The notes beneath the pieces were generated by a model, which saw nothing but the letters and a program-made list of their open reading frames with translations, was not told where the DNA came from and searched no databases. A stretch of DNA of 64,000 nucleotides, taken from the NCBI GenBank assembly GCA_900550255.1, contig URQZ01000006.1:3392-67391 (forward strand), read 5' to 3'. Made by a program: the position numbers and the translations under genes. The stretch is from an uncultured Mycoplasmatota bacterium (GTDB lineage Bacteria > Bacillota_I > Bacilli_A > RF39 > UBA660). Positions 35,871 to 38,199 of this stretch are shown here, in pieces; within the stretch, counting starts at the first letter, position 1; every line of letters starts with the position of its first letter.

Positions 35871-36567
35871 TTTAAAGGGAAGTATAGATTCAATTGAAAC
35901 TTTAGGACTAGTTGATGGTCCTGGTATTAGAACTGTTGTTTTTCTTAATGGGTGTAAACTTCGTTGTTTGTATTGTCATAACCCTGAAATGTGGAAAATT
36001 AAAGATTATAATATGACAGTCGATGAATTGGTAAATAAGATATTAAGGTATAAACCATATTATAAAGATAATGGTGGGGTAACTTTCTCAGGAGGAGAAC
36101 CTCTTCTTCAATCAGATTATTTACTAGAAGTTTGCAAGCGCTTGAAAAAAGAAAAAATAAATATAGCTTTGGATACAGCAGGTGTTGGTAATTATAATGA
36201 AAAATTATTAGATTATATAGATTTAATTATATTTGACATAAAAGCTGTAAAGTCAGATGATTATAACTATATAACAGGATATAAAATAGATGAATCATTA
36301 AAATTTTTAAATAAATGTCAAGAAAAAAACATAAAAATGTGGATAAGACAAGTTATAGTTCCAAAAATAAATGATAATGAAAAAAACATATTGGAATTAA
36401 AAAAATTTATTTCAAAATTAAAAAATGTGGAAAAAGTAGAATTACTTCCATATCATACCATGGCAATTGATAAATATAAGAAACTAGGTATTGAATATAA
36501 ATTAACTGGTTTAGAAGCCATGAACAAAGAAAAATGTAAGAAATTAGAAAAATTACTTTTAAAGTAA
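35857..36567 (+). CDS. pflA: Pyruvate formate-lyase activating enzyme (radical SAM)
   Basis: '[28 protein letters not shown]' is the CxxxCxxC radical SAM motif. Confidence 0.85.
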
Positions 36568-36576
36568 TTTTTTTTG

Positions 36577-36605
36577 TTGACTCATGATAACAAATAAGTT
36601 ATCAT
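36577..36605 (+). promoter_or_regulatory. Sigma-A promoter (-35 TTGACT, 17 bp, -10 TATCAT) whose spacer contains the palindrome TGATAAC-aaataa-GTTATCA
   Basis: Read directly. Palindrome at 36585..36604. Confidence 0.5.
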
Positions 36606-36623
36606 AAATCTGAGGTGATTATC

Positions 36624-37100
36624 TTGAGTGAGTTTATAAAAAAAGTTAAAAAAGATGGAAATGTTAGAAATATTGATGAAGCCTTTAAGGAATATCCTGT
36701 TGAAGAAGAAATTCATCAAGGTAATTTTGAATATTATGTTGCAGAAAAAATTATCAAATATGGTAAATATAATATAGGTGATATTGTTTTTGTAAGTAAG
36801 TATAAATATGAAAGTGGTTTGCCTGGAAAAGAGCACTTATTTGTTATTATTGACAAAGATAATAGAAGTGTTCCACTTGAATATTTTGGACTATTAATAT
36901 CATCTAACTTAAAAAAATTAAAATATAAAAGCAATAAATTATTAGAAAAAAATAGTAAAAATAATTTAATAAAAAATAGTTTAGTAAAATGTGATGCTAT
37001 CTATGTTGTAAAAGAGGATAGTATAGTTGGTAAAATTGGAAAGGTTGATATAGAATTGATTGAAAAATATAAACAAATATATAATAATATAATTAAATAA
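36624..37100 (+). CDS. PemK/MazF-like endoribonuclease-toxin homologue with a ~45-aa N-terminal extension
   Basis: 'NIGDIVFVSKYKYESGLPGKEHLFVII', '...LISSN...' and 'SLVKCDAIYVVKEDSIVGKIGKVDIELIEKYKQ' follow the MazF/PemK pattern (GDIv.v.f...G.E...RP.vV / SV.lcDQi...d..Rl..kiG.l....m..i). TTG start 5 nt after GAGGTGA. Confidence 0.5.
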   Translation: MSEFIKKVKKDGNVRNIDEAFKEYPVEEEIHQGNFEYYVAEKIIKYGKYNIGDIVFVSKYKYESGLPGKEHLFVIIDKDNRSVPLEYFGLLISSNLKKLKYKSNKLLEKNSKNNLIKNSLVKCDAIYVVKEDSIVGKIGKVDIELIEKYKQIYNNIIK

Positions 37101-37113
37101 AAAGGAGATTTTT

Positions 37114-37389
37114 ATGACAAAAAAAGAATTAAAAAATGCTACTAATTTTTTTGAAACTGAAACAAAATTAATAGAAAAAGAATATGAATTAGTAAAAAAA
37201 ATAATCGCAATCAGAAATGATAAACATATATCACAAAGAGAATTATGTGCACAAATAGGAATGAAACAACCAGCTTTAGTTAGAATCGAAAATCAAAATA
37301 ATTCACCATCACTTAAAACAGTATTGAAAATATTAGAACCACTCGGTTATACACTAGAAATAAAAAAAATCACAAATAGTGATTTATAA
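37114..37389 (+). CDS. XRE-family HTH protein (putative antitoxin/regulator)
   Basis: 'ISQRELCAQIGMKQPALVRIENQNNSPSLKTVLKILEPLGYTLEI' is an HTH_XRE. Confidence 0.7.
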   Translation: MTKKELKNATNFFETETKLIEKEYELVKKIIAIRNDKHISQRELCAQIGMKQPALVRIENQNNSPSLKTVLKILEPLGYTLEIKKITNSDL

Positions 37390-38199
37390 AAATAGAATAA
37401 CTAAAGTACCAACAATTAAACAGTAGTACACAAAATAAATAAGTTTTCCTTCTTTAACTAAACTTCTAAACCATTTAGTAGCAATATATGTAAATATAAA
37501 GGCAACAACAACACTAATGAAGTAAAATAAAAGTTGAATGCTATCAAGATTTGCTTTTAATAAATCTTTTATACCAATAATCATTGTAGCTAAAGTAATG
37601 GGAATATATAACATAAATGAGAAATCAAAAGCGGTTTCTCTTTTTAGATTTCTAAACATTCCACCAACAATAGTTGATCCACTTCTACTAATTCCAGGAA
37701 GAAGTGCGACTACTTGAAATAGGCCAATTACTAGAGCATCTTTAAAAGTTATTTCTTTTCCATTCTTTTTACCTTTAAAATCTTTAATTAAAAATAAAAA
37801 TAAAGCTGTTATTAATAAAGTAAGACCTACAAATTTTATATTTTTTTCAAGAAAATCAAAAAGGCCAAATTTAGTTACAACAAGTCCCATTATACCAGCA
37901 GGAATTGTTCCGATAACAATCAACCAACAATATTTATAATTAGAATAATATTTATTTTCTTTAGTTTTTAAGTAACTAAAGAAGGAAACAATCAATTCAC
38001 ATATTTTTTTTCTATAAATAATTACAATAGCTAAGAAGCTACCAAAGTTAGTTAAGATTGCTAAAATATTGTAATCAATATGACTAGAACTATTTAATAG
38101 TTTTTGGAAAATTAATAAATGTCCGCTGGAAGATACAGGAATTGGTTCTGTAATTCCTTGAATTATCCCTAAAAAAATAAATTTAATAAGTTTTAACAT
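37384..38199 (-). CDS. uppP: Undecaprenyl-diphosphate phosphatase
   Basis: 'GISRSGSTIVGGMF' and 'SSSGHLLI' motifs with 8 TM. Its 3' end overlaps the XRE gene by 6 nt (convergent). Confidence 0.85.
   Translation of the reverse strand: MLKLIKFIFLGIIQGITEPIPVSSSGHLLIFQKLLNSSSHIDYNILAILTNFGSFLAIVIIYRKKICELIVSFFSYLKTKENKYYSNYKYCWLIVIGTIPAGIMGLVVTKFGLFDFLEKNIKFVGLTLLITALFLFLIKDFKGKKNGKEITFKDALVIGLFQVVALLPGISRSGSTIVGGMFRNLKRETAFDFSFMLYIPITLATMIIGIKDLLKANLDSIQLLFYFISVVVAFIFTYIATKWFRSLVKEGKLIYFVYYCLIVGTLVILFL

Follow-up and report, generated by a model that had tools for sequence, protein, structure and literature searches.

Results

A stretch of 64,000 nucleotides (nt) from an uncultured Mycoplasmatota bacterium (GCA_900550255.1, contig URQZ01000006.1; the whole stretch is referred to below as the window) was analysed for a pair of adjacent small genes. 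The first, gene A, encodes a PemK/MazF-like protein of 158 amino acids (aa), and the second, gene B, a 91-aa helix-turn-helix (HTH) protein of the XRE type. With moderate confidence, the locus was read as a vertically inherited, self-regulated module derived from a toxin-antitoxin (TA) system, in which a self-neutralised MazF-type toxin would be accompanied by a HigA-like repressor. Judged by homology, gene A is a single chain of antitoxin tail and toxin, because free antitoxins whose genes precede extension-less toxin cores are homologues of its N-terminal extension. Both genes already carry generic NCBI labels and fused TA proteins are a known kind, EzeT being an example; the family to which gene A belongs is previously undescribed. 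The gene pair had been described in an earlier note made from the sequence alone, and its coordinates, sizes, gene order and promoter pattern were all present as given there. Related loci are designated below by L numbers and homologous proteins by P numbers.

The N-Terminal Extension of Gene A

Homologues of gene A, recovered from 5.8 billion proteins, fell into 588 clusters, nearly all of approximately 160 aa and with end-to-end coverage of the query. The extension comprises a helix (residues 3–10), a conserved motif, NIDEAFKEYPVEEEIHQGN (residues 16–34), and a variable linker (residues 35–50). Five of its residues (A20, F21, P25, E29 and H31) are invariant, and the motif is acidic, with the pattern AF..YPVEEE.H.G. 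Across 150 family members, the entropy was 1.01 in the motif, 0.96–1.14 in the barrel core and 2.16 in the linker. An extension of approximately 50 aa, conserved to the same degree as the core, is a hallmark of the gene A family. The earlier note had given its length as about 45 aa.

A profile of the extension alone was searched against 1.84 billion representative proteins, and its matches included many gene fragments, together with small free proteins. One of the latter, P0259 (143 aa), carries a Pfam RelB antitoxin domain at residues 5–61 (38.4 bits, against a cutoff of 22.4) and has the motif (RVLNVAEAFTKYPVEEEAHKGKLEYW) as its C-terminal tail. The P0259 gene overlaps by 11 base pairs (bp) a gene for a 118-aa extension-less core (family hidden Markov model (HMM), E 2e-32), which is 38% identical to residues 51–157 of gene A. 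P0244 (57 aa) consists essentially of the helix and motif alone and is followed, after 13 bp, by a 127-aa core (family HMM, E 2e-48); this arrangement was found on three contigs. P0264 (88 aa) overlaps an extension-less core gene, and the gene for P0291 (55 aa) is separated by 8 bp from a downstream 119-aa PemK gene. In these split relatives (L176, L177–179, L180 and L182), a separate antitoxin gene therefore adjoins the toxin gene. No separate extension-type antitoxin gene is present in the window, where the segment is fused to the toxin.

The antitoxin tail and core of the split systems are collinear with gene A, and the gene boundary falls within the variable linker. The free antitoxins carry the same invariant residues as the extension of gene A, and comparison of the two by hhalign gave a probability of 99.1% (E 1.1e-18) over 41 columns. 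The same extension profile had no significant match in Pfam or among the PDB sequences.

Type II antitoxins, RelB, MazE and Kis among them, wrap and neutralise their toxins with the segment that follows the DNA-binding domain on its C-terminal side. As this C-terminal segment is the neutralising part, the extension was read as an antitoxin tail, and we infer that it inhibits the gene A core in cis. The suggestion in the earlier note that the extension could be an intramolecular antitoxin-like segment has become, through the homology to free antitoxins, the best supported of its interpretive points.

Two further candidates were rejected. A likeness of the extension to the C-terminal helix of the Firmicute MazE was dropped at an hhalign probability of 0.2%, for which the B. 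subtilis EndoAI sequence had been verified against 4me7_E. P0265, in which the motif is followed by a P-loop domain, had been considered as evidence of a further kind of toxin; its only source is one contig of low coverage, which does not re-translate to the query.

Variants of the layout were also observed. In P0179 (248 aa), the MazF core is preceded by a tandem duplication of the antitoxin-like motif, with the His-x-Gly missing from the second copy, and P0166 (212 aa) has an additional C-terminal extension of approximately 50 aa; both are further signs of a movable peptide module. At L182, a Phage_holin_Dp1 gene and a 254-aa gene lie immediately upstream of the 55-aa antitoxin and 119-aa PemK core (2110–2645), which suggests a prophage lysis-module context for this two-gene form. 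The RelB-tailed split system at L176 has its own promoter-like region (TTGACA...TATAGT, 150–295) containing the palindrome CAACGCGTTG, which fits autoregulation by the RelB domain.

The Putative Toxin Core of Gene A

Residues 52–149 of gene A matched Pfam PemK_toxin (PF02452; 27.2 bits, against a gathering score of 23.1), and the protein matched the PHROG 'MazF-like growth inhibitor' (E 7e-6). No match was found among the NCBIfam models or in PADLOC. The AlphaFold model was closest to the MazF/Kid structures and has the SH3-like barrel of the MazF/CcdB fold. The earlier note had recognised a MazF/PemK pattern in the protein and had proposed fold prediction as a check, and both the Pfam score above the cutoff and the structural matches bear it out.

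The identity of gene A to the solved MazFs was 13–17%. In a low-confidence profile alignment, the invariant S93 aligned with the catalytic T48 of BsMazF (T52 of EcMazF). The canonical Arg-Pro (R25 in BsMazF, R29 in EcMazF) is replaced by x-His71 in the same low-confidence alignment, where the invariant H71 lies one position past the Arg column. The cores of the split systems carry the same His as gene A. On these matches, gene A is a divergent MazF-fold protein, and its core is a putative sequence-specific endoribonuclease.

The HigA-like Protein and Its Distribution

Gene B matched Pfam HTH_3 (E 1.6e-11) and the NCBIfam model HipB, and its matches to Pfam HTH_37 and dnstrm_HI1420 were below the cutoffs. 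The closest solved relative was the HigA antitoxin (6af3_B, E 2.4e-10, residues 21–86), followed by HipB. The protein comprises a pre-HTH helix (residues 1–28), the HTH (residues 31–82) and a C-terminal strand, LGYTLEI. It is therefore an XRE-type HTH protein encoded after the toxin gene, as had been noted earlier, and the likeness to HigBA seen in this toxin-first order also stands, with a HigA-type gene B and a MazF-fold gene A.

The close family of gene B consists of four clusters, and the HTH orthologues align over their full length, including the pre-HTH helix. An orthologue lies downstream of the gene A relative in L089, L090, L171 and L173, as in the window. In L175, it lies upstream and overlaps the start of the gene A relative by 8 bp, and in P0010 and P0110 it is fused to the C-terminus of the gene A relative, the latter on two independent contigs. 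The adjacency thus persists through reordering and fusion, which argues for a functional link between the HTH protein and the gene A family.

Most members of the family have no such partner. The flanks were readable, with 350 bp or more on each side, for 112 distinct family genes; 107 of these were solo (without an HTH partner), as were all 73 of the family loci from species-representative genomes. The solo genes keep every invariant residue and are flanked by housekeeping genes (lysS and a peptidase, ftsH and transketolase, priA and sufC) at distances of 2–170 bp, too short for another gene. The family is present in more than 150 gut bacterial species, usually without the repressor. Because so many family genes lack an HTH partner, gene B is more likely, from its distribution, to be a repressor than an essential neutraliser, and the antitoxin role that the earlier note gave to the HTH protein is doubtful in so far as it means neutralisation.

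An apparent natural deletion of the HTH gene in L174, whose P0016 is identical to that of L173 (which has the HTH gene), was rejected; the sequence there is a run of N (L174:2014–2113), a scaffold gap. This is a caution for presence and absence calls in scaffolds of metagenome-assembled genomes (MAGs). Separately, two copies of the family (L053 and L058) were found in one MAG, CANQWF01, and so the solo gene is not always single-copy.

The Promoter and Candidate Operator

A promoter-like sequence precedes gene A (Table 1). Promoter-like hexamer pairs were not above chance in the window (9 found, compared with 11.6 expected in shuffled AT-rich sequence), and for this reason the pattern match alone was not used as evidence. 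The support for a candidate promoter and operator rests on conservation across species instead. The layout TTGAYW-N17-TAT[C/A][A/T]T, followed by GAGGTGA and the start codon, was also found in L089, L173 and a solo clade (L120/L167); in L091, the −10 box and 5′ untranslated region (UTR) are kept and the −35 box is weak. The promoter and 5′UTR are homologous across much of the gene A family.

The sequence includes a perfect palindrome with 8-bp arms, ATGATAAC (36584–36591) and GTTATCAT (36598–36605), and the core TGATAAC-N6-GTTATCA. It is unique in the window, where 0.04 chance matches would be expected at one mismatch or fewer. A perfect inverted repeat had been reported in the promoter spacer by the earlier note; the repeat is as described, but its right arm is not confined to the spacer and contains the −10 hexamer. 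The window species, L089 and the fusion loci L091/L092 each have the exact core approximately 20 bp before the gene, and L090 has it with two mismatches. In 1.07 Mb of related loci, the core occurred nowhere else at zero or one mismatch. Four independent lineages with the closest orthologues of gene B, the fusion included, thus have the palindrome in a common position.

In all of the solo loci, the palindrome was decayed or absent. In a neighbour-joining tree, one solo lineage falls within the paired lineages, and its copy is degenerate, TAATAAC-N6-GTTATAA. In the solo clade with a homologous promoter, the left arm is decayed and the −10 box is TATAAT instead of TATCAT. On the simplest reading of this pattern, gene B, bound across the −10 box, would act as the repressor of the operon, and loss of the repressor would leave the site to decay.

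A different palindrome, TTGTCAA-N5-TTGACAA, was observed over the −35 box, approximately 60–40 nt upstream of the family gene, in some solo sub-clades (L141, L150–L154, L062, L119 and L112), and in degenerate form in L013, L019, L020, L058, L065, L100, L130 and L166. It suggests an unlinked regulator in these solo sub-clades.

Proposed Mechanism and Alternative Explanations

Under the favoured reading, residues 51–158 of gene A would be the toxin domain, a putative ribonuclease (RNase), and residues 1–50 would be the antitoxin segment, tethered to the core by a variable linker of approximately 15 residues. The extension would dock on the toxin domain in cis, or across a MazF-type dimer, and keep the toxin inactive. 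The gene A protein would then be zymogen-like, with the toxin equimolar with its antitoxin segment and neutralised as it is made. By analogy, activation may occur when the linker or extension is cut or degraded, or when the extension is displaced by a trigger. DNA binding, a function of the N-terminal domain in canonical antitoxins, would be supplied here by the separate downstream gene B. A gene B dimer would bind ATGATAAC-N6-GTTATCAT, occlude the −10 box, repress the bicistronic operon and set the level of gene A, and gene B may also contact the gene A protein. The arrangements found in the family are a RelB domain and tail followed by the core, a minimal antitoxin followed by the core, the single chain, the single chain with a HigA-like gene (as in the window), and the triple fusion.

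Several points weigh against this reading. The AlphaFold model of gene A was only moderately confident (predicted local distance difference test score (pLDDT) of 77, predicted template modelling score (pTM) of 0.56), and the x-His in place of the catalytic Arg-Pro makes RNase activity less assured. The split systems are each known from one to three short metagenomic contigs. The HigA homology of gene B is compatible with a neutralising role as well. The association between the operator and the HTH protein is correlative and covers four lineages, and the palindrome is absent from L173 and L171, which are paired with diverged HTH proteins; in L173, a direct repeat of TGTTATAT takes its place. 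Finally, long-term vertical retention beside housekeeping genes is atypical of TA modules and may point to a cellular function that is not toxic.

The first alternative takes up this last point and holds that gene A is a domesticated, non-toxic MazF-fold RNA-processing nuclease or RNA-binding protein of TA descent, with an XRE repressor in a few lineages. We consider it unlikely. It would account for single-copy, vertically inherited genes of native guanine + cytosine (GC) content in conserved housekeeping neighbourhoods (lysS-X-peptidase, ftsH-X-transketolase and priA-X-sufC) in so many species, and the catalytic Arg, which appears not to be conserved, and the lack of a PADLOC match for gene A are also in its favour. 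However, the split-system cores, which stand in the canonical layout, share the His and Ser invariants; the Arg substitution therefore runs through the whole family and does not signal inactivation. The strict conservation of the antitoxin motif most simply means that there is still something to neutralise, and the HTH partner is of an antitoxin (HigA) type.

In the second alternative, the pair is a classical two-protein type II TA system in HigBA order, with gene B as the sole antitoxin and repressor and a non-inhibitory extension, which could serve substrate binding, dimerisation or catalysis via E29 and H31. Gene B is indeed most like a genuine antitoxin, HigA, and HipB; the HTH gene stays next to its partner in three different arrangements, tight coupling and fusion among them; and an operator that overlaps the promoter is typical of TA autoregulation. 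Nevertheless, we regard this alternative as quite improbable. The solo genes retain all of the invariant residues without an HTH partner, although this count is to be read with the possibility of a trans-encoded antitoxin elsewhere in the solo genomes. In addition, the homology of the extension to free antitoxins speaks against it, and the close family of gene B is tiny.

Returning to the self-neutralised toxin with its HigA-like repressor, a broader version may be put forward tentatively, as a possibility that we hold to be less than even. Gene A may represent a widespread and hitherto overlooked class of natural single-chain, zymogen-like MazF RNases in gut Firmicutes, in which the antitoxin peptide became permanently fused, the DNA-binding domain was shed and the gene was domesticated among housekeeping genes, to be switched on by proteolysis of the linker or by a stress- or phage-derived trigger that displaces the peptide. 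This would be the MazF-fold counterpart of EzeT and CapRel, and the lineage of the window would be an intermediate that keeps a HigA-like repressor.

If the self-neutralised reading is true, the few known cis-neutralised toxins (EzeT, CapRel) gain a MazF-fold member, one that stands as a lone gene in more than 150 gut species. It raises the question of how a toxin could ever be set free from an antitoxin that is tethered to it and equimolar with it, and the series of arrangements in the family lets neutralisation and DNA binding be dissected separately. It also means that calls of an 'orphan PemK/MazF toxin' in MAGs may be complete, self-contained modules.

Genomic Context and Inheritance of the Pair

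The features of the locus are collected in Table 1. The host is a common, low-GC, uncultured human-gut bacterium. A protein identical to gene A in NCBI (MEI3499246.1, 'type II toxin-antitoxin system PemK/MazF family toxin') uses the same TTG start and is found on 161 contigs; one identical to gene B (MEI3499245.1, 'helix-turn-helix transcriptional regulator') is found on 591 contigs. Both accessions are from a Bacilli MAG.

Table 1. Features of the gene A/gene B locus in window coordinates.
Feature	Position	Strand	Remarks
AT-rich hairpin and U-run across the pflA stop codon	36548–36580	+	Inverted repeat, RNA fold
Sigma-70-type promoter: TTGACT (36577–36582), 17-nt spacer, TATCAT (36600–36605)	36577–36605	+	10/12 match
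Palindromic operator candidate, ATGATAAC-N6-GTTATCAT	36584–36605	none	Unique in window, conserved in relatives
Shine-Dalgarno sequence of gene A, GAGGTG	36612–36617	+	6 nt upstream of start; kept with the 5′UTR in relatives
Gene A, 158-aa PemK/MazF-like protein	36624–37100	+	TTG start; Pfam PemK_toxin
Gene A residues 1–50, antitoxin-homologous N-terminal extension	36624–36773	+	Invariant residues, hhalign
Gene A residues 51–158 and stop codon, divergent MazF/PemK-fold core, putative endoribonuclease	36774–37100	+	
Shine-Dalgarno sequence of gene B, AGGAG	37103–37107	+	Within the 13-nt gap after the gene A stop
Gene B, 91-aa HigA-like XRE-HTH protein	37114–37389	+	HTH_3 match
Convergent uppP (BacA)	37384–38199	-	BacA, E 1.4e-73; same arrangement in L089, L090

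The gene A proteins of L089 and L090 are 66–68% identical to that of the window, and the three loci share a downstream block composed of the convergent uppP, a yuzI-like gene, a 212-aa gene and a gene of approximately 185 aa. The upstream neighbour is pflA in the window and a different gene, such as ligA, in L089 and L090. At 0.21, the GC content of the pair is that of its surroundings, and no repeats, integrase or tRNA were found at its borders in the window. Because of the downstream synteny in related species and the native GC content, the pair is taken to be vertically inherited and is not a recent insertion, and the two-gene insertion proposed in the earlier note is not upheld. The possibility that it is a recently acquired mobile TA cassette between pflA and uppP, serving stabilisation or phage defence, is therefore very improbable: the variable upstream neighbour and the phage holin gene beside one split relative would fit it, but the synteny at this level of identity, the matching GC content, the plain borders and the occurrence of the identical proteins on 161 and 591 contigs, from an organism common in the gut, do not.

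Upstream of gene A lie an open reading frame for a 742-aa pyruvate formate-lyase-like protein and that of its radical-SAM activase (pflA), which ends at 36567. The hairpin at the end of pflA contains a perfect 12-nt inverted repeat of A and T only (fold of −9.1 kcal/mol, z −2.77), and 0/200 shuffles were as stable. Together with its U-run, this hairpin probably terminates the pflA transcript, in which case the gene A/gene B pair would depend on its own promoter. At the other end, the 3′ ends of gene B and uppP share 6 bp (37384–37389), and no terminator-like structure was found between them in the window sequence; convergent transcription could couple their expression. Rfam gave no RNA family in the window.

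Relation to Known Toxin-Antitoxin Systems

MazF toxins are the best-studied bacterial mRNA interferases, and their control is understood through a labile, separately encoded antitoxin. The MazEF/PemIK systems (Kis-Kid; B. subtilis EndoAI-EndoA, PDB 4ME7 and 4MDX) share with gene A the PemK/MazF SH3-like barrel, in which the Thr/Ser position appears, from the low-confidence alignment, to be kept. The split relatives of gene A also share the canonical order, with the antitoxin first, tight coupling to the toxin, and a DNA-binding domain with a C-terminal tail. In the window, by contrast, the neutralising segment would be fused to the N-terminus of the toxin and there is no separate upstream antitoxin gene. 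The extension has no detectable similarity to MazE/EndoAI at the hhalign probability given above, gene A has x-His where the alignment places Arg-Pro and is remote from the solved MazFs in sequence, and the DNA-binding protein is XRE/HigA-like and lies downstream. The partners named in surveys of MazF are AbrB, ribbon-helix-helix (RHH)/CopG, DUF3018, PHD, RelB and archaeal winged-HTH proteins; those of stated position lie upstream of the toxin, and a downstream Xre/HigA partner is in none of the surveys' lists (PMC2701414, PMC3879964). Targeted full-text literature searches returned no account of an N-terminally extended or self-neutralised natural MazF.

The closest analogue to gene A in logic and domain order is EzeT of E. 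coli, in which an antitoxin-homologous N-terminus and a C-terminal toxin form one polypeptide. EzeT is a natural fusion of an N-terminal cis-antitoxin to a zeta toxin, is auto-regulated in cis and is believed to descend from a bicistronic operon whose two genes fused (PMC4826407). The two proteins are unrelated in fold and activity, EzeT being a zeta UDP-N-acetylglucosamine (UNAG) kinase and gene A a putative RNase of the MazF fold; no separate repressor gene is dedicated to EzeT; and cis-neutralisation has been demonstrated for EzeT, whereas for gene A it is deduced from homology. On PemK domains, the same review (PMC4826407) says only that they are present in uncharacterised multi-domain proteins. 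An engineered fusion of a MazE fragment to MazF with intramolecular regulation is indicated by the title of Park et al. 2012 (cited in PMC4773802).

With HigBA (S. pneumoniae HigA, PDB 6AF3/6AF4), the pair shares a HigA homologue of the same size, the toxin-first order and a palindromic operator in the promoter. However, gene A is of the MazF fold and not the RelE/ParE fold of HigB, so the locus is not a HigBA member, and the HTH partner is missing from approximately 95% of the gene A family and so is probably not an essential neutraliser.

In three-component TA systems, such as omega-epsilon-zeta and paaR-paaA-parE, repression and neutralisation reside on different polypeptides, and a similar division is proposed for the pair in the window. 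There is no sequence relationship with these systems; the neutraliser would here be fused to the toxin, leaving two genes, and the regulator lies downstream.

Fused toxin-antitoxin defence proteins of the CapRel(SJ46) type are single-chain, autoinhibited toxins whose pseudo-antitoxin part could sense a trigger (PMC9712102), as in the proposal for gene A; the toxin there is a toxSAS enzyme and its antitoxin portion is C-terminal. CapRel is found in defence and prophage contexts, whereas the gene A family lies mostly among housekeeping genes and has no PADLOC match.

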